Source of the DNA: Nitrosopumilus sp.
GTDB taxonomy: Archaea; Thermoproteota; Nitrososphaeria; Nitrososphaerales; Nitrosopumilaceae
Length of the DNA stretch: 64,000 nucleotides
Direction of reading: 5' to 3'
Assembly (NCBI GenBank): GCA_965207445.1
Contig: CBDBLX010000002.1
Location: forward strand, 640,001-704,000
Shown here: in pieces, positions 1-14,936 of the stretch
Layout of the letters: the number at the start of each line of letters is the position of its first letter
Position numbering within the stretch: position 1 is the first letter of the stretch
Notes under the pieces: model-generated
The model's database searches: none
Told to the model about the DNA's origin: nothing
The model's input: only the letters and a program-made list of their open reading frames with translations
Translations under genes and position numbers: made by a program

Positions 1-164
1 CGTAATCCTGAGATCATGCAACGGGATGAGAAATTACACTTGGCTTTTCTACTTTGACAAAATACCGTTTGAATACGATCGAACCGGGAAAAACAAGAGT
101 GCAATGCCGGCATGACCCGCCACAACATCCCGACGGATCCTGCGCGTCCTGGGCACCGCTGCAC

Positions 165-439
165 TCATGCGGTATAATAGTCGTGAATCTTTACTGTCGG
201 AATCGTCTTTTTCCTGACGGCGGCCCTGATTCTCCTGCGCACATCCGCGGCGTCCTCCATTATGATGCCCGACAGTCTGCCCTTGATGCCGTCCCACTGC
301 GTCTCGATGGGGTTCAGCTCCGGGGTGTAGGACAGAATGAATTCAAACTGCATGTACACGTCTGTGTCCTTTGTAAACTACCTGAGCTTTGCCTTGCGTG
401 ATAGGCATAGACGTCGTTCTCCATCACGTCCAGTTTCAT
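165..439 (-). pseudogene. IS630-family transposase C-terminal remnant (frameshifted)
   Basis: ORF 165..359 has FILSYTPELNPIETQW..IK, matching the IS630/DDE_3 LPxYSPELNPIExxW motif. The upstream frame (MKLDVMENDVYAYH) resembles the DN..YH motif but is out of frame. Confidence 0.7.
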
Positions 440-488
440 GTCCACACTTCTATTAAGAGGTTGGGATTATTTGAGTCACTAAAATAGG

Positions 489-503
489 GTGGGCCCGAAG
501 GGC
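489..503. repeat. Distal att site (15-bp copy of the tRNA 3' end)
   Basis: Identical to 3755-3769. Confidence 0.88.
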
Positions 504-643
504 CCCGGTGTAGCTGTAGGAACGAGCTCATACAAGTAACAACGGCAGAAAGCGAACCGGGACGCTTACAATATCTCTGCCACTCTTTTTTCTCCTCAGA
601 GCTCCGCTTAGATGACTGGGAACGAACTTGGGCATGCAGTCAT

Positions 644-1996
644 CTATTTGGCATCGGATGCCGAAAAGCGCCCTATGAATAGAATAGTACCGCTCTCATC
701 GTCTTGTATGACAAAAATGAATGGGTGATCCGCCGTGAATCTGACTGGTTCTGGCCTTTCCCCTTCAGTCATAATCATAATGGTGGTGACTGCGGCGGCT
801 TCCGTTCCCTCCTCGTTTATGTCGACAAACGCATCCTGAAATGCGCTGGAGACGAACAGATTTCCAGTCATCGCAAGATCTGCCATGCCCGAAAAGTCTG
901 CGCTGTTTGGATCAAAGACGCGCGGAATTCCAAGGTTACTGAGATATGTACCGAGCGGATAATGGGTTTCTGCCTTGAACTTGGGCATCAAGACTATGAC
1001 CTCCGCAGGATGCAGCTGCTGCCGCCATGCGTCAATCTTTTCTGCAGATATTGTCTTCTCCAGTTGTTCTATGGTGTTTCTCTCCGACGGCAAAAACACC
1101 AGCATTGAGAGCCTGTCGCCCTCATAGGGCATCTGCAGGACCTCCACCCCGTCTGACTCGACATAGTTGAAAAAGTCGTGGTTTTGCATAAAGTCTATCT
1201 CGGCCGTAGCTGTATCGTTTTTCCAGAATGTGTCTGTCCCGGTGCTGTTTGGATCAAATTGCGTCACCCACGTTCCTTTGAAGTATATGGCGTTGTTCAG
1301 CACGGCCACAGTGAGCGGACCGAGGTCACTTGCCTCCACTACTTCGGTTATCTTGTCGTCCGTCTTGTCGGCCGCCCAGCCGTTTATGCGCTCCGCGCTC
1401 CCCTTGGGATCACCTGCAAAATCAAGCGTCTCAATGTCTGCCAGATATACATCACGCACAACATCCGTGTACGTGTCGTACGGAACGAACCAATTGGCAG
1501 GCCACAAGGCGTTTGCAGTCTCGAGGGTGGCATTGGGATCGTCGCGGTTAATTGAGGATATTGTCTGGACGACGTGCTCGTGACGGGCTTCCACATTCGA
1601 ATAAAAGCCAAACATGCGCTCCATCTCGGCGGCAGTCTCGGCCCGCGCGCCCTCGTACAAGAATGAAAAGGCCATGTACATGCTAAAGGGGGAAAAGAAG
1701 ATGGTCTCTTCCTTGTGGTCCGGATCCCCCGCTATCTGGTTATACATGTCTATTGCGAACGCGTTATGGCGCATCGTGGCCTCGCGTGGGGTCGCGGGAT
1801 CCGAGTATGGTGTGTCCGATGGTGCATGTGTAGGGACAGGCGGTTCTGTGGTCTGGGCTGCAGGAATCTCTGCTTGCTGCAGTGCGCCCGGATCGTCCTG
1901 CACGGGTGCGTTCAATGTCAATCCCACGTACGCGACGGCGACCACTACTACGGATACGGTGACTATGGCAACTGCCAGCATTCGGCGTCTGCTCAC
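644..1996 (-). CDS. Serpin (serine protease inhibitor) with N-terminal membrane anchor
   Basis: Motifs FFSPFS, NAIYFKGTW, hinge EEGTEAAAVT and FTADHPFIFVI; N-terminal hydrophobic helix followed by a Pro/Thr-rich linker. Confidence 0.96.
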   Translation of the reverse strand: MSRRRMLAVAIVTVSVVVVAVAYVGLTLNAPVQDDPGALQQAEIPAAQTTEPPVPTHAPSDTPYSDPATPREATMRHNAFAIDMYNQIAGDPDHKEETIFFSPFSMYMAFSFLYEGARAETAAEMERMFGFYSNVEARHEHVVQTISSINRDDPNATLETANALWPANWFVPYDTYTDVVRDVYLADIETLDFAGDPKGSAERINGWAADKTDDKITEVVEASDLGPLTVAVLNNAIYFKGTWVTQFDPNSTGTDTFWKNDTATAEIDFMQNHDFFNYVESDGVEVLQMPYEGDRLSMLVFLPSERNTIEQLEKTISAEKIDAWRQQLHPAEVIVLMPKFKAETHYPLGTYLSNLGIPRVFDPNSADFSGMADLAMTGNLFVSSAFQDAFVDINEEGTEAAAVTTIMIMTEGERPEPVRFTADHPFIFVIQDDESGTILFIGRFSASDAK

Positions 1997-2352
1997 TGTA
2001 TGATCACCGTGTACATGGCGCGCTCCAAGTTCTGGCCGTCATGGCCTGTGATCATAAAGGCGTACGTGCCGGGCATCATGCTGGACGTGCTTATCGACCG
2101 GGAAGTCTTGACTATAAGCGCCATGATGCTGTCTTGTTATGGGACACTGTTTTTAAACGCTGTGTTTGCTGGCTTAAATTAAGATATCTTTATATATGCA
2201 GGAGTATAATAAGATAGCATGGAAACACACAAGAGGACGGCGCGCGGGACGCTGGACGCGTACTGCGATCTGCTTGCAAGGAGCGCCGAGGTGTTATAAA
2301 CAAGTACGTCAGCACTATATCCAAGGATGAAGTCGCCGAGAGGCCGACCGAT

Positions 2353-3633
2353 ATGGGAAACAGTACAGACACAGAGAATGACACTGCCAAATACAACAAT
2401 CGCAAACGGACCGCAAAGACATCAAACAAGGCTAGGATGCTAAGCAATCCGGAGGTAAGCAGGTGGCACACCAACATGGCAAGAGGATCTGCCATTACAG
2501 CGGACATCACGCTCAGGCGCCTTGACGTGTTCTGCAGGACCCACCAGATGAGTCCCATGGAACTGGCTGGCTTGGGCATGAAAGATGTGCGCACCGCAAC
2601 AAACCTGTTGGAGGACCACATAACGTGGATGGAGGACAAAAAGTACGCCCCCAGCTACGTCAACAGCTACGTAAAAGCGGTAAAGTCATGGCTGGCGCAC
2701 TTTGACGTCGAGATAAGGCGGAGGATCAAGGTCAGGAACATGAACCAGACCCCGACGCTGCAGGACGAGCGCGTCCCGGACGCATCGGAGATTGCAGAGG
2801 TCTTTGCAAGGGCGCCACTGCGAACCGCGGCGATGATCTCGCTGATGTCAAAGTCAGGCGTGAGGCCAGAGGTGATGGGAAACCATGACGGTACGGACGG
2901 ATTGAGCATGCGCGATCTGCCAGACGTTGTAATACATCAGGGCGTGGCAAAGTGCATCAGGATGCCGTGCCAGATTGTGGTACGGGCCGATCTCTCAAAG
3001 ACTAGGCACCAGTATTTCACGTTCCTGACCGCATCTGGCACGACAAAGCTGCTTGCGTATCTGAACGACAGGCTGGCGTGCGGCGAGCCGCTGCACGGCG
3101 AGTCGGCTGTGATAGCGCCCGACCACAGGCACCTGCAGCACCGCACCAGACATGCGCTCAAGACGTTCATCACGACGCTACAGATTGGCAAGGAGATCCG
3201 CAAGACATTCCGCCCTAGGTTTCAGTGGAGACCGTATATACTGCGGGCCTACTTTGACACGCAACTGCTGATCGCAGAGTCAAAGGGTAGGATTGCACAC
3301 GACTTTCGCGTCTTCTTCATGGGCCACAAGGGAAGCATGGAGGCAAGGTACACGACCAACAAGGGAATGCTGCCGGAGATGCTGACCCAGGAAATGCGCG
3401 AGTCCTTTGTGAGATCCGAGGAATTTCTGGACCTGGAGGATCACATGACGCACGAGCAGCACGACATGATGCAGAACCACAAGCAGGAGCTACAGGATGC
3501 AATACAGAGCGCGACGCCAGAACAGCTGGGCCTGATGCTAGAGGCGCTTAGAAAGAGCGCCGGCAATATGCAGAGTCCGGCTTGCCACCAGCAGAACAGA
3601 CCGTTGCAGACGCCGATGCCGCAGAGCGCCTGA
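2353..3633 (+). CDS. Tyrosine recombinase / site-specific integrase
   Basis: Catalytic pattern SGVRPE (R), LSKT (K), RPYILRAYF (Y-x-x-R), MGHKG (H), ARYT (Y); ends ~120 bp from the tRNA att site. Confidence 0.9.
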   Translation: MGNSTDTENDTAKYNNRKRTAKTSNKARMLSNPEVSRWHTNMARGSAITADITLRRLDVFCRTHQMSPMELAGLGMKDVRTATNLLEDHITWMEDKKYAPSYVNSYVKAVKSWLAHFDVEIRRRIKVRNMNQTPTLQDERVPDASEIAEVFARAPLRTAAMISLMSKSGVRPEVMGNHDGTDGLSMRDLPDVVIHQGVAKCIRMPCQIVVRADLSKTRHQYFTFLTASGTTKLLAYLNDRLACGEPLHGESAVIAPDHRHLQHRTRHALKTFITTLQIGKEIRKTFRPRFQWRPYILRAYFDTQLLIAESKGRIAHDFRVFFMGHKGSMEARYTTNKGMLPEMLTQEMRESFVRSEEFLDLEDHMTHEQHDMMQNHKQELQDAIQSATPEQLGLMLEALRKSAGNMQSPACHQQNRPLQTPMPQSA

Positions 3634-3755
3634 TTGTACAGCACGGATGGCGGTACGCGGGCACGTTGCCAAACGGCAAGGTCGTGCTACAGCGCCAGCG
3701 ACAACAACCATCACAGCAACGACAACCAACAAGGAGCTCGTTCCAGATGTAGGAG

Positions 3756-3829
3756 TGGGCCCGAAGGGCTTCGATCCCATGGCTCACCGGTTATGAGCCG
3801 GTTACTCTACCAAGCTGAGTTACGGGCCC
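3756..3829 (-). tRNA. tRNA with CAT anticodon (probably tRNA-Ile2; Met not excluded)
   Basis: Cloverleaf GGGCCCG/CGGGCCC-A with anticodon arm ACCGG-CTCATAA-CCGGT; the GGGCCC acceptor is typical of archaeal Ile tRNAs. Confidence 0.92.
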
Positions 3830-4059
3830 TCATCAAATGTACTTTATACCGAGGTATAAAATGTTGCTAGGTGATGTACGTAATCAATTTCAATGTACAA
3901 AATATTAACACTAATCAATAACAACTACGTATAAAGTTAAAAAATAATATATCATTATCAACAACATGTCAAAAAAACATAAAACACATCAGTTAAAATT
4001 AAAGGGGATATAGACACATCAGTACAAATCAAAGTAAAAAATTAAAATAAAAAGTGGTG

Positions 4060-4731
4060 TTACTTGCAGTATTCTTCATAGCATGAATCAAGCAACAAAT
4101 TTTGTGCAGAGACTGATTTTGATGCAGTGTCAAGTAGTAAAGATGCAGATTCACCACTAGGGTTCAACACAACATCATCAAAGTCCTCAATTATGTGCTG
4201 CCACAATGCTGCATGTCGAATATCTGCCTCTGTATGTAGATCAAAGTATCGCGTAGATTGCTCATCCACAATGCCATAGAATGATTCTAGTCCATCAAGT
4301 TTGGTCTGACTTACTTTTGGAATCTGTTTCTCAAAAGCATACATTGCAGAAGCTCCGGCATAAAAGCCAGATGCACTCATCAAACTCCCAAGATCGTTGA
4401 CTGCTTGTGATGTCTTTGGTAACCCCTCGTAACTTGTCAGTTCTGACTCAGATACGCCCAGCCGATCTGCAAAATCAATCCACGGTGATATGTGATCTGA
4501 CTCTTCTTGACGATTCTCTTCTAATTCAGCAACAAAAGGTGTAGATTCAGGAGCAGATTCAATTATCGCGTCCATGAATTTTGGAACAGCTTTTACTAGC
4601 TGAAAGTACTCTTTAGAGTATCCTGCAAGAGATGCCATTGATAGTTCACCAGCAGACCACATCTCATAAAATGGATGTTTGAGGAGGCTTCGTTGTTCAA
4701 TTACCTCATCGATGTACCTTACAAGGCTCAT
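4060..4731 (-). CDS. PqqC/TenA/CADD-like heme-oxygenase-fold protein (possible pABA synthase)
   Basis: LLKHPFY..W..GEL, EN..EE..H..W and YF.LH..AD..H metal-binding pattern. Confidence 0.8.
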   Translation of the reverse strand: MSLVRYIDEVIEQRSLLKHPFYEMWSAGELSMASLAGYSKEYFQLVKAVPKFMDAIIESAPESTPFVAELEENRQEESDHISPWIDFADRLGVSESELTSYEGLPKTSQAVNDLGSLMSASGFYAGASAMYAFEKQIPKVSQTKLDGLESFYGIVDEQSTRYFDLHTEADIRHAALWQHIIEDFDDVVLNPSGESASLLLDTASKSVSAQNLLLDSCYEEYCK

Positions 4732-4919
4732 ATTTGGACTCTCAAATAACACTAAAAAAATCTTTGGAGTTATTATTTAAAAACAAGAGGAAACTTTCGT
4801 ATTTGTGAATACTGAAATTGATCATGCATATAATGCACCATAATATCATAATAACTCATTTCACATTGAAATGATGAAAGTGCATCATGCTGTATGAATT
4901 ATAATAACATGGTAGTATA

Positions 4920-4990
4920 ATAATCATTAATAATAATAGTAATAATAATAACAATAATAACAGTAATAATAATAACAGTAATAATAATAA
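4920..4990. repeat. (AAT)n-type microsatellite
   Basis: aataataat runs with interspersed aac/agt. Confidence 0.8.
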
Positions 4991-5011
4991 CGTCGTATAA
5001 TCCGATGATCG

Positions 5012-5923
5012 TCAGCGTTGTTTGTCAATAACATCTCGCAACGAATGTATATGATCTGGTGTCGTACCACAACACCCACCTATAATTCGAATGCTACGAT
5101 ATTTTTGTATGATATCTGACATTATATTTACCATCTCTGCAGGTTGCAACGGATACTCATCGGCATTGTCCATATCAGGTATGCCTGCATTTGGAACAAC
5201 TAGTAATGGATGACTACTATTCTCATCACGCCATTGTATAGAATTTATCATCTCTTCAGGTCCTGTGTTACAATTCAAGCCAAATACATCGATTCCCATG
5301 CCAGATATAGTAACATAAGCAGATTCAGTAGATGTACCCATCAACATCTTGTTTGCTTGTGCAAGTGTAATATTAGCAAAGATAGGAATGTCAGTGTCAG
5401 TGCGTTTTATTGCACTCATCGCAGTTTTTAACTCTAGTATATCTTGACTAGTCTCTAAAACTAAAGCATCAACACCACCACGTATCAATCCCGATGCTTG
5501 CAGATAAAACGCATTTTCCAGATCATCAAGTGACATCTCTACTTCTGGTGGGTTTTTCATAGTTGGCATATAGCCAGACGGTCCCATACTACCAATCACA
5601 TATTTATTATCAAATAAGTCGGCCACCGTTCTTGCCAAACTAGCAGCATTTTTGTTAAAGTCTGCTGTTTGATCACCAAACCCATACTCATCGAGTTTTA
5701 TCTTATTAGAACCAAAAGTGTTAGTAGTTATACAATCAGCACCGGACTCTAAATAATTTCGATAAACTACTTGTAACCATTCTGGGTGTGTGACATTCAA
5801 GCCATCATTGAATCCTTGCTTGTTTCCTGGAAAGTCACTATCTACAGGGTTGTGTTTTTGTAGTTGTGTATCTATTGCGCCATCAAACAACAATATCTTG
5901 GACTTTAGATCATCTCGTAGCAT
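5012..5923 (-). CDS. Homocysteine S-methyltransferase (N-terminal module of split B12-dependent methionine synthase)
   Basis: GAD.I.TNTF, GLNC, PNAG.P and GGCCGTTPDHI zinc motifs. Confidence 0.92.
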   Translation of the reverse strand: MLRDDLKSKILLFDGAIDTQLQKHNPVDSDFPGNKQGFNDGLNVTHPEWLQVVYRNYLESGADCITTNTFGSNKIKLDEYGFGDQTADFNKNAASLARTVADLFDNKYVIGSMGPSGYMPTMKNPPEVEMSLDDLENAFYLQASGLIRGGVDALVLETSQDILELKTAMSAIKRTDTDIPIFANITLAQANKMLMGTSTESAYVTISGMGIDVFGLNCNTGPEEMINSIQWRDENSSHPLLVVPNAGIPDMDNADEYPLQPAEMVNIMSDIIQKYRSIRIIGGCCGTTPDHIHSLRDVIDKQR

Positions 5924-6365
5924 AAAGAACAAACAGACAATACAGCATCTTAATATATGTTATAGTGCAAAAATATTACAAATACCAATTAAATTAATAT
6001 AAAAGATCATTTATTTTAAGTAGAAATAAAAATCACAAACAAAAATACAGATCATAAATTACATGTAATTATAATACGAATAATTTGATAACATATTTAC
6101 AAAATCATAAAATGATTTTTATATATATCCAGAGTTTTCTGATATGTTATGTTTATTATATGCACTTGTAACTAGTCACCAAGATGTCTACAAGTAAAAC
6201 CACCTGTTCACTCAAACAACAACATTAACCACAACAACAACCACCACATCAAAACACTGCAATTCAGGTGTGATCAATGATTGCAAATTTAAATCTCTTT
6301 ACCAAAACATGCATCTAGATGCATTAACAAAGGATTTTATGCTAAAATATTAGAATATTGATGTT

Positions 6366-6459
6366 GTTCCAGTGGTGTAGACCGGTCAAGCATACTGCCC
6401 TTTCAAGGCAGTGATCCCGGGTTCAAAATCACACGATGAAAGTCCCGGCTGGAGCACCA
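6366..6459 (+). tRNA. tRNA-Glu(TTC) with 15-nt non-canonical T-loop intron (6428-6442); CCA encoded
   Basis: Acceptor GTTCCAG/CTGGAGC, anticodon loop CTTTCAA; T arm interrupted by a bulge-helix-bulge motif. Confidence 0.93.
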
Positions 6460-6504
6460 AGATTTAATTAGTTGAGATGTAATTTTTAATATAGGCAGAC
6501 CTTT

Positions 6505-7356
6505 ATGGAAAGCGAGAAAGTAGAGATTAATCCACTTGCAGAGGCTTATGGAGATTACATAAAGAGAATTAATAGTGCACTTAACTATGAGCTTGCACTA
6601 TACAAAGAATCAGAGTTCATAGAGCCACTAGAATACTCACTTGAAGGCGGTAAGAGAATTAGACCTTTGATATTGATACTAGCTGCGGAGTGTGTAGGAG
6701 ATGTAGATGAGAATGCATTCACAGCATCATGTGCAGTAGAATTTTTGCATATGGAGTCCATAATACATGACGACATTATAGACAATGAGACGGTAAGAAG
6801 ACAAAAGGATCCATTTCACATAAAATATGGGTATAATACAAGTATACTTACAGGTGACTTTGTTCTAGGACTCATACTAGCAATATGCTCTAGGCTAGAC
6901 AACTCTAGAGTGACAAAAGATTTAGCTACTACTGCAATGTTGATGAGCGAAGGTGAGATGATAGAGGGAATGCTAGAGACAAGTCAAGATGTGACGTTTG
7001 ATGACTATCTAAAGGTCATAGAATACAAGACAGCAACAGCATTTGAGGTTGCATCTAGGACAGGTGCCATAATGGGCGGAGGTACAGAAGAGCAAATAGA
7101 GGCTCTCACAGAGTACGGACGAAATATCGGAATTGCATACCAAATAAGAGATGATCTTCTTGATTGGAAGAACGAAGACAAACTGTTTAATCTCTTGATA
7201 AAACACAGCTCTGATCCAAGACACGTGTTTGACAAGATGGAAGAACTGTTAACACAGTACTCTCAAAAAGCAACAAATGGACTGAGAAAGATTCCAGACA
7301 GCTCTGCAAAGGAGGGTTTGGAGAATCTAATAAGGCTCACATCATACAAAATGTGA
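6505..7356 (+). CDS. Polyprenyl diphosphate synthase
   Basis: GGKRIRP, IHDDIID and QIRDDLLD motifs. Confidence 0.93.
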   Translation: MESEKVEINPLAEAYGDYIKRINSALNYELALYKESEFIEPLEYSLEGGKRIRPLILILAAECVGDVDENAFTASCAVEFLHMESIIHDDIIDNETVRRQKDPFHIKYGYNTSILTGDFVLGLILAICSRLDNSRVTKDLATTAMLMSEGEMIEGMLETSQDVTFDDYLKVIEYKTATAFEVASRTGAIMGGGTEEQIEALTEYGRNIGIAYQIRDDLLDWKNEDKLFNLLIKHSSDPRHVFDKMEELLTQYSQKATNGLRKIPDSSAKEGLENLIRLTSYKM

Positions 7357-12762: not shown

Positions 12763-14742
12763 TTAAGATGCATCATCAGATGGTGGGCCAATGATTTTAC
12801 ACAACTCCTCCCAGACATTTAGTCCACGCAGCTTCCACGTCTCAACACAACTGAGCATCACACAGAGATTTTCTGCTCCCTTGTCACTCTTCAACTGCAG
12901 ATGACTGTTCCTCTGACCTATTACAGGTTTCATTGACTGTTCTCCAATATTTGTGGTAGAGTAGACAAATGGATACAAAACAAATGTAAAAAGTTCGGGC
13001 GCTGCGTTTTTTAGTGTGGTGCCAAACTTTTTCATTATTTCATATCTGCTTTTTTTGTATCTAGATATTATACCACATAACCATTTTTGAAGTTTTGTAA
13101 CATATGAACGCCTACTCTTTAAAGAGCGGTCGCCACGAGTCCATTTGCGCAACGCGATAAATTTTCTGTTCAACTCATTGTACAGATTGGTAGCAGATTC
13201 AAGTTCACTACGATTTGAAATAGTTCTACTCTCCCGCACAATGTGTTGTGTGCAGCGCTGTTTTATGTGATTTGGAAATACAGTATCATATCCACGGTAT
13301 CCATCTCGACTTATTGCACCAATACAATTTTTGGCCTGTGCTATGAGATCTGTTGCACTACGATTCTGAGCGTACATGTACGCTACAGTGTCATCGTTTC
13401 TAACTGCCATTATCCATCTTTTGGGCTCACCTTTGTATTCGGTCTCATCCATGATTACTGATCGTGATTTTTCTAATTCTGCCATGAAACCATCTCTTAT
13501 GGGTTTTAGCATTGCAGTTTGACGGTCGTATATATTGCGAATTGTCGTATCAGAAACATCTAGTTTGAACAGATTCTTTAAATCTTCTGAAACCATTTTA
13601 GGGGTCTTTCTGTGCGTGGATTGATATGTTACATAGCGAATTACAGAGTAATCGAACTGACCTTTTGGTGGAAGGTTATTTTTAGCTTGAAATTTTGCAC
13701 CACAGTCAAGACAATTGTACTGGGCAGTTTTGTGTAGTGTGACAGTGTGAGGGACAAATTCAGGTATCGAAACTATTGTCCGTTTTTTATCCTTGTGGAG
13801 GTCTTGTATGTTGTTTTTACCACACTCTGGGCAACATGTAGCAATATGTCTCTTTTTTTCTGTTGGTTTGAATATATGAGTGCCACCATTATGCCCTAAA
13901 ACACCACTTCGTTTGTTGGGTTTAGCCTTGTCAGTCTTTGCACCATTTGTGTTGTTTTTGTTTTGTGCAGATGTTTTTGACTTATTATTTTTTGATTTAT
14001 TGTTTTTTGATTTATTTGGATGTATGGCGCCCTGCTTTGATGATGGTGTATGGGCATTCTCATAATAGTTGAGCTTTGTCTCATAATTTTGTATGGTTGT
14101 GTCTTTTTTCTGACTTTGTTTTTTTATAGCAGTGTTATTCTTTTCTAGGTTTGAGTTATCTTCTTCTAATGTATTGACACGGCTCTTTAATGTATTTATG
14201 ATATGATCTTTTTTCTTTAGCTCTTCATCTTTTTTCTTTAGCTCTTCATCTTTTTTCTTTAGCTCTTCATCTTTTTTCTTTAGCTCTTCATCTTTTTTCT
14301 TTAGCTCTTCATCTTTTTTCTTTAGCTCTTCATCTTTTTTCTTTAGCTCTTCATCTTTTTTCTTTAGCTCTTCATCTTTTTTCTTTAGCTCTTCATCTTT
14401 TTTCTTTAGCTCTTCATCTTTTTTCTTTAGCTCTTCATCTTTTTTCTTTAGCTCTTCATCTTTTTTCTTTAGCTCTTCATCTTTTTTCTTTAGCTCTTCA
14501 TCTTTTTTCTTTAGCTCTTCATCTTTTTTCTTTAGCTCTTCATCTTTTTTCTTTAGCTCTTCATCTTTTTTCTTTAGCTCTTCATCTTTTTTCTTTAGCT
14601 CTTCATCTTTTTTCTTTAGCTCTTCATCTTTTTTCTTTAGCTCTTCATCTTTTTTCTGTTCAAGTTGCTGAATTTTCTTTTCATATTTTATTTTTAATTG
14701 AATACATGCATCGTCTGCTTTGTTTGGTCTTTTTTGACTCAT
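12763..14742 (-). CDS. IS66-family DDE transposase with expanded N-terminal coiled coil
   Basis: Zinc finger CPECG..CLDCG; MDET, SRDGY, QRC.QH..R and TTN.GEQ motifs. Confidence 0.92.
   Translation of the reverse strand: MSQKRPNKADDACIQLKIKYEKKIQQLEQKKDEELKKKDEELKKKDEELKKKDEELKKKDEELKKKDEELKKKDEELKKKDEELKKKDEELKKKDEELKKKDEELKKKDEELKKKDEELKKKDEELKKKDEELKKKDEELKKKDEELKKKDEELKKKDEELKKKDEELKKKDEELKKKDHIINTLKSRVNTLEEDNSNLEKNNTAIKKQSQKKDTTIQNYETKLNYYENAHTPSSKQGAIHPNKSKNNKSKNNKSKTSAQNKNNTNGAKTDKAKPNKRSGVLGHNGGTHIFKPTEKKRHIATCCPECGKNNIQDLHKDKKRTIVSIPEFVPHTVTLHKTAQYNCLDCGAKFQAKNNLPPKGQFDYSVIRYVTYQSTHRKTPKMVSEDLKNLFKLDVSDTTIRNIYDRQTAMLKPIRDGFMAELEKSRSVIMDETEYKGEPKRWIMAVRNDDTVAYMYAQNRSATDLIAQAKNCIGAISRDGYRGYDTVFPNHIKQRCTQHIVRESRTISNRSELESATNLYNELNRKFIALRKWTRGDRSLKSRRSYVTKLQKWLCGIISRYKKSRYEIMKKFGTTLKNAAPELFTFVLYPFVYSTTNIGEQSMKPVIGQRNSHLQLKSDKGAENLCVMLSCVETWKLRGLNVWEELCKIIGPPSDDAS
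14206..14657 (-). repeat. Perfect 21-bp tandem repeat, ~21.5 copies (KKDEELK)
   Basis: Unit ctcttcatcttttttctttag repeated head-to-tail without mismatch. Confidence 0.98.
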
Positions 14743-14936
14743 AGTATTGGTAAAAACCTTTGATCATATAAGTGTATTTATTATTTCCACTGATTTAGAT
14801 AGATTAATTTAAATATGAGAAAAAATATTATCGTAAAACCTTAAAATCTAAATTATTTTATTTATTCATATTCAAATTTTAAATGAATATATCAGTCAGG
14901 GAGGTTGGTTCACACAAATTTTGTAATAAAGTAGAA

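Follow-up and report, generated by a model that had tools for sequence, protein, structure and literature searches.

According to the accessible parts of the survey by Krupovic et al. (2019, PMC6563490), cryptic integrated elements (CIE) of Thaumarchaeota range in size from 2.6 to 98 kb, possess short att sites (median 17 bp) and target tRNA genes; they often carry no replication gene, the element NitUzo-E2 comprises 2.6 kb and the smallest element contains four ORFs. For archaeal integrases that have been characterised, the available part of PMC8371274 describes excision as independent of a directionality factor. In sponge-associated ammonia oxidisers, secreted serpins are encoded next to S08A subtilases, some of them beside tRNA genes, and these pairs were proposed to control the archaeal cells' own or host proteases (Moeller et al. 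2019, PMC6790972; PMC7848895); the accessible text of these papers treats the tRNAs as insertion sites and names no integrase or att site. A literature search, which covered mostly journals outside subscription, revealed no report placing the protease–serpin pair inside att-bounded elements.

The window, which is the whole 64,000-nucleotide stretch of Nitrosopumilus sp. DNA analysed here, contains an element of 3,266 bp (core to core). Judged by the features described in the accessible text (PMC6563490), the element fits the CIE in every feature that could be tested: a tyrosine integrase, a 15-bp att site, a tRNA 3'-end target, no virion or conjugation genes and a size within 2.6–98 kb; occurrence in tandem arrays and adaptive cargo are further points of resemblance. 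It differs in that the word 'serpin' is absent from the main text of that paper, as far as accessible, and in that the small size is traced here to a deletion; the divergent accessory gene, the inverted-repeat arms and the out-of-frame C-terminal module defined below go beyond the CIE description. The SSV-type suicidal integrases (PMC8371274, in its available part, as for the next two systems) are likewise archaeal tyrosine integrases targeting tRNA genes, but here the integrase gene is not split by integration, because the att core at 3755 lies 121 bp past the integrase stop at 3633; there is no integrase fragment at the left end. The SNJ2 integrase with its Orf2/Orf3 helpers, compared by description, is similar in having a small accessory gene beside the integrase gene, whereas the accessory gene of the present family is divergent, not co-transcribed, and has no clear fold match. 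The PYG1 island also has no replication module, and it can circularise. In the published S08A–serpin pairs both genes are present; here the pair is found inside att-bounded elements, and in the window the protease gene is deleted. The features of the locus are as follows.

489–503, forward strand: distal att core (attL-type), an exact copy of the tRNA 3' end (repeat search, genome search)
519–529, forward strand: left inner arm, forming an 11-bp inverted repeat together with the right one (shuffle test)
542–574, forward strand: conserved left-end motif of about 33 bp, common to other family members
644–1996, reverse strand: serpin of 450 aa with a hydrophobic N-terminus, a P/Q/T-rich linker and a full serpin domain
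1993–2124, reverse strand: 43-codon chimeric ORF marking the deletion, its stop overlapping the serpin start codon
2125–2218, no strand assigned: back-to-back promoter region with TATA-like boxes at 2157–2150 (reverse) and 2189–2196 (forward)
2219–2352, forward strand: frameshifted N-terminal integrase extension, one base short near 2290, with 26 codons to the stop
2353–3633, forward strand: tyrosine recombinase of 426 aa (homologue alignment, structure model, Foldseek)
3582–3752, forward strand: small conserved module that overlaps the integrase stop in the −1 frame and, in distant relatives, is fused to the integrase
3734–3744, forward strand: right inner arm, the other half of the 11-bp inverted repeat (shuffle test)
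3755–3829, reverse strand: target tRNA(CAT), probably Ile2, the 3' 15 nt of which (3755–3769) are the proximal att core

The preliminary description of this locus had proposed a tRNA-targeting, att-bounded integrase element delimited by a 15-bp repeat of the tRNA(CAT) 3' end, and this has been borne out. The repeat is exact at both sites; with up to 2 mismatches allowed, two matches were obtained where 0.02 would be expected, and no other copy at 0 or 1 mismatch is present in the 2.6-Mb genome. The perfect inverted repeat of the inner arms has a length that was reached in 0 of 300 shuffles; by their coordinates, the arms would flank the core on either side in an excised circle. Since the two copies of the 15-bp repeat agree exactly and have no further counterpart in the genome, and the inverted repeat links the inner arms, the ends are cognate att sites; the arms are probably integrase-binding sites. 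In L117, a 79%-identical relative, the arm repeat is likewise 11 bp long and spaced as in the window but differs in sequence, and the same-tRNA relative L119 has a 12-bp repeat; among the att pairs tested for arm repeats, 8 of 24 gave a shuffle p ≤ 0.004 and the other 16 did not. The target tRNA was labelled Met by ARAGORN, but its acceptor stem resembles that of the tRNA-Ile(GAT) of the genome, which also contains a second, intron-bearing CAT tRNA; the tRNA is therefore more likely Ile2(CAU) by sequence, under identity rules that we take to apply here. The described lack of replication, conjugation and virion genes also stood: the span contains two genes longer than 160 aa with no PHROGs match, capsid, terminase, casposase and conjugation genes were not found in it, and the ORF list, Pfam and PHROGs revealed none of the virion, packaging or replication genes characteristic of a provirus or virus satellite. 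The reported GC-rich interior was confirmed (0.49–0.59 versus 0.396 for the genome), but the GC step is sharp on the right side only, and positions 1–400, left of the element, also have a GC content of 0.52 and contain a weak IS630-type fragment. The names of homologues indicate a thaumarchaeal host.

An extension of the element to the left past 489 was considered and rejected; the genome contains no further core copy, and the left flank consists of IS remnants followed by nuoN. The block around the target tRNA is rearranged in comparison with relatives, and IS debris borders attL; because of this, a native empty-site flank has no direct match. The genus is represented by 29 loci of this tRNA region, of which 25 contain the tRNA and 19 of these have the same housekeeping gene, presumably pyrE-like, directly beyond it. 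None of the 29 loci matched the integrase or the serpin. The 15 joints listed for contigs of three runs (X1, X3 and X4, all from one sample, from which the assembly may derive) include neither the 3769-to-504 joint nor an empty-site joint, and contigs drop rare forms. Sequencing depth across the element is similar to that of the flanks; run X5, with no cover over the serpin or flanks, was left out of the evidence.

The history of the element can be read from the region between its two main genes. Codons 1–9 of the chimeric ORF (2124–2098) correspond to the start of the accessory gene, and the rest (2097–1993) continues in frame as the C-terminus, about the last 34 codons, of an S8 subtilase (E 2e-7, 72.7% identity over 33 aa). 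In another study, a contig has two differences from the window over 2214–2098 (117 nt) and then leaves it, and since this independent contig departs at that point, the breakpoint is fixed at 2098. The undeleted order is provided by locus L113 of genome G410, which gave the best serpin match among 401 genomes (64%), the serpin gene being divergent from an integrase gene of about 68–69% identity and 5.6 kb away from it. In L113, tRNA-Val(CAC) is followed by the integrase gene, a divergent gene of 102 aa, a gene of 1,643 aa containing S8, P-domain and Ig domains, and the serpin gene, the far end of the element being marked by another core copy at a distance of 18.8 kb from the tRNA. The window is 71% identical to L113 over 659–2097, past the serpin start, and the overlap of the stop with the serpin start codon is the same in both; measured against L113, about 5 kb is missing from the window. 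Going by these remnants, the small size is due to deletion of the accessory gene and the gene for the 1,643-aa S8 protease. The serpin had been described as the only cargo, but it is accompanied by remnants of two deleted genes at 2124–1993, and the idea of a minimal one-gene cassette is not supported. Nor is a new class of element established, since elements from 2.6 kb upward without replication genes have already been described for Thaumarchaeota (PMC6563490, accessible parts).

The accessory protein has 80–115 aa across the family and is encoded divergently from the integrase. Its predicted structure (pLDDT 84.8) combines three strands with one long helix. Searches revealed no Pfam match and no Foldseek match at E 0.001, and the first Atlas match had a value of 0.87; in fold comparison the best Z-score was 4.4, and an integrase arm-binding domain scored 3.4 (rmsd 4.4, 50 aligned residues). 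A directionality or regulatory role can be guessed from its position beside the integrase gene.

A serpin ortholog rides another att-bounded element of the same integrase family at a different tRNA, and the case shows that the protease–serpin operon can travel on such elements. This offers a concrete route by which the operon, a proposed host-interaction trait of sponge archaea, can move between lineages. A further 20 loci were chosen by S8 or serpin score; the serpin gene was located directly downstream of the S8 gene in 12 of the 14 S8 loci, and in the remaining 6 of 20 serpin genes, some of them in tandem, occurred with no S8 gene of this type. This integrase was found in 1 of the 20 loci and the accessory gene in none; the operon is common, and the element is one occasional carrier rather than a dedicated operon vector. 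Locus L172, with an integrase near an S8–serpin pair, was rejected as an att-bounded carrier, as no tRNA or repeat of at least 12 bp was found. Three other loci (L114, L116 and L132) have a serpin gene within 20 kb, and no att pair around it was found. The serpin scan of genome contigs revealed 8 loci, all distant and bacterial. An association of the element with sponges is suggested by no more than nearly identical pieces of the integrase and promoter in one sponge metagenome.

The integrase had no match in Pfam or PHROGs and only a weak XerA match in NCBIfam, and a PDB sequence search with the integrase alignment returned only spurious repeat-protein matches, with no stretch passing on its own. 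The model built from 121 homologues (pLDDT 84.7, with the first 20 residues at low confidence) has a predicted tyrosine-recombinase fold; the top Foldseek match was XerA (5hxy, E 3.3e-7), followed by Cre and lambda integrase. Residues R171, K216, R298, H325 and Y333, to which we presume catalytic roles, are invariant in the aligned homologues and present in the window. Truncation at the C-terminus was rejected, as relatives with 92% and 87% identity stop at the same residues. The integrase had been called intact, which applies to the 426-aa frame from Met-2353, the only integrase frame open in the window, but not to the N-terminus: the integrases of close relatives have about 45 extra N-terminal residues, variable in sequence, and ATG-2219, the start used by these relatives, is out of frame in the window. 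The contigs of the three runs are identical to the window over 544–2350, and a relative from another study has one extra base behind 2290; because of this agreement the frameshift is not considered an assembly slip, the sample of those contigs being possibly the source of the assembly. An ATG close to the TATA-like box was detectable in 11 of 16 relatives examined and in frame in 10 of the 11, versus none of three candidates in the window. Each of the two TATA-like boxes precedes an ATG by about 30 nt, which suggests leaderless starts at both. Variation in the 24 nt ahead of Met-2353 is low, third codon positions included (0.05 versus 0.36 in a catalytic motif), a figure biased because the 24-nt motif was chosen by DNA similarity; the conserved stretch could possibly serve an internal start at Met-2353.

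Taken together, the locus is best explained as a stranded, deletion-reduced island with an expressed serpin, a reading that we hold to be probable. An element of a widespread thaumarchaeal tyrosine-integrase family would have been inserted at the tRNA 3' end, with the crossover in the 15-bp core. As the remnants and L113 suggest, it would originally have contained the standard module of the family, the integrase gene and the divergent accessory gene, then the S8 subtilase–serpin operon; a deletion of about 5 kb then joined the accessory gene, cut after its codon 9, in frame to the final 34 or so protease codons. The serpin gene would now lie behind the accessory-gene promoter via the 43-codon leader, the product being probably made by translational coupling, and the 1-bp loss uncoupled the integrase from its promoter-proximal start. 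Excisability is doubtful because the accessory gene is lost and a frameshift lies upstream of Met-2353, so that the element is most likely stranded or rarely excised. The cognate ends, the chimera, the 2098 breakpoint in the other-study contig, the L113 gene order and the S8-then-serpin order elsewhere all support this explanation, as do the accessory gene of the family (next to the integrase in 17 of 21 rows from the hand-picked genome loci, 16 of 20 distinct), the in-frame ATG of relatives, the flank-like depth and the partial integrase copies, the same genome having six more matches to this integrase, all partial.

Several observations do not favour stranding. The extension missing from the window is variable, the accessory-gene profile had no match in 4 of 20 distinct genome loci or in any of 64 metagenome rows, excision by characterised archaeal integrases needs no directionality factor (PMC8371274, available part), and L113, the only full parent-type element seen, is distant, occupies a different tRNA and contains some 10 kb of additional cargo. 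With its perfect core and arms, its invariant catalytic residues and the conserved DNA motif ahead of Met-2353, the deletion form might still be mobile, the 426-aa integrase excising a 3.27-kb circle without the accessory protein and the cassette spreading by natural DNA uptake or helper elements. A 286-bp integrase piece with 100% identity in a run from another study agrees with this, as does locus L115, where two core copies at tRNA-Lys enclose a 3.0-kb segment that contains a serpin gene but neither an integrase gene of its own nor clear arms; however, the frameshift after the promoter-proximal ATG and the loss of the accessory gene make such mobility unlikely, no second copy of the deletion form was found among the loci examined, and L119, the 87%-identical sister at the same tRNA, contains two unrelated cargo ORFs and a broken integrase gene.

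Among 21 genome-derived rows, the window being one of them, the module of about 35 residues at the C-terminal end of the integrase gene was found in 18 and is out of frame in each of these; in the metagenome rows it is in frame in 25 of 60 and out of frame in 8 of 60, with 20 truncated rows left out of the tally. Its variation is mostly at third positions (0.59 versus 0.2), a figure biased by the choice of module cores by amino-acid pattern, and a start codon is often absent. Inspection of the overlap with the integrase gene by eye revealed no slippery heptamer. The module may be a recoding product or a separate small protein. A bolder combination, in which the shortened integrase still excises the 3.27-kb form and this form spreads among sponge-associated archaea as a shield made up of the serpin alone, while the family recodes its integrase by joining the C-terminal module through frameshifting, the two forms setting recombination direction, seems rather improbable.

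Serpins are suicide inhibitors of serine proteases. The window serpin matches Pfam Serpin with E 8.7e-110, covering positions 3–368 of 370, and PDB serpins with E values down to 3e-61. Its one strongly hydrophobic N-terminal stretch (residues 6–24, mean hydropathy 2.76) suggests export, with this stretch as a putative anchor or cleaved signal. The hinge (P17–P10, residues 395–402) is composed of small residues and invariant in 12 aligned homologues; by the consensus that we take to define inhibitory hinges, it is predicted to be of the inhibitory type, and the serpin domain is complete. P1 is presumably Glu411, assuming the 17-residue rule. The complete domain and small-residue hinge are those of a predicted MEROPS I4 inhibitory serpin. 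As the GC3 of the serpin gene (0.62) exceeds that of four host genes (0.29–0.36) and the 29 genus loci have no integrase or serpin match, the view that it is acquired cargo is supported. The inhibitor may act at the cell surface on serine proteases other than its lost partner, as the properties of the serpin family suggest. This genome has a second serpin gene, likewise intact and preceded by a remnant of the same protease C-terminus, which hints at selection keeping the inhibitor; the locus would be an example, dated in order, of an inhibitor ending up without its protease, twice in one genome. Neutral decay, with the serpin gene intact simply because no mutation has struck it so far and the in-frame fusion due to chance (1 in 3), fits a genome rich in broken members of the integrase family and IS remnants and a protease gene that was a far larger target than the serpin gene, but is the least probable reading given that second serpin, the loci with serpins and no S8 protease of this type, and the complete hinge and domain.

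Of 401 related genomes, 111 have a member of the integrase family at E 1e-30 or better and 78 have serpins, tallies that include six genomes marked unpublished, used for no other claim. In 80 metagenome loci the tRNA 3' end was located just past the integrase gene in 49, and a 12–19-bp repeat was found in 16, giving sizes of 5.0–11.2 kb; no serpin match was revealed in these loci. Nine stretches of viral contigs fitted a pattern, none encoding a relative. Ammonia-oxidising archaea lack genetic tools, a need stated in the accessible text of PMC6563490, and because the family is common, escapes Pfam and PHROGs and has short att sites with defined arms, its integrases are candidate integration tools for them. 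In 20 genome regions, hand-picked because they have a close integrase or a serpin in the vicinity, att-bounded sizes extended from 2.9 kb (L119) to 15.7 kb (L117), against 2.9–19 kb for the family overall, and the cargo varied, including, e.g., type I restriction-modification or DndB genes.

The 2.6-Mb genome carrying the window contains a second, intact serpin gene (contig C2, 1286475–1288261), located behind an IS-truncated C-terminal remnant of the same S8 protease as in the window, and this locus is a second case of protease loss with the inhibitor retained. Residue 411 of the window serpin is the predicted P1 position, and the residue found there is acidic in most of 12 aligned close serpins; an acidic P1 is unusual where the partner protease is a subtilase. 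The target of the window serpin may be a glutamyl-specific protease, or the cut may fall elsewhere in the loop. At tRNA-Lys(CTT) of locus L115 (11597–16041), three att copies delimit two segments of 1.4 and 3.0 kb, both lacking an integrase, and a serpin gene is in the larger one, of 3.0 kb.

Further members of the window's integrase family are present on C2, where tandem decayed elements at tRNA-Arg(TCT) (2373607–2390070), 3.6 and 7.8 kb in size, are delimited by three att copies; an intact copy of the accessory gene, the small gene divergent from the integrase in relatives, is located beyond them. Near 469, 988 and 1005 kb, three more copies of this gene stand at the head of large ORFs that, judging by a reading of the sequence, resemble genes for restriction-modification or a helicase, and a full integrase is absent at all three. 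Near 898 and 1071 kb, the conserved left-end motif immediately follows C-terminal remnants of the integrase; this arrangement resembles an intact circle junction sitting away from a tRNA.

A conserved module overlapping the integrase stop (window 3582–3752) was compared across the genome-derived loci L113–L132 and the metagenome loci L033–L112. The module is out of frame in all near rows where it was found (18/18) and fused to the integrase in 25 distant rows, and its start codon is often absent; recoding is possible, as is a small protein of its own.

IS630-type fragments lie directly outside attL, the distal att core, both in the window (1–488) and in the sister element L119 from another genus (14703–14936). 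When set beside relatives in the genus, the block tRNA(CAT)–TenA–tRNA-Glu–polyprenyl synthase (window 3755–7356) seems to be flipped with respect to nuoN. Two short repeat families of about 120 and 150 bp (L001, 18030–18150 and 19220–19370) are MITE-like, each with dozens of copies throughout the genome.
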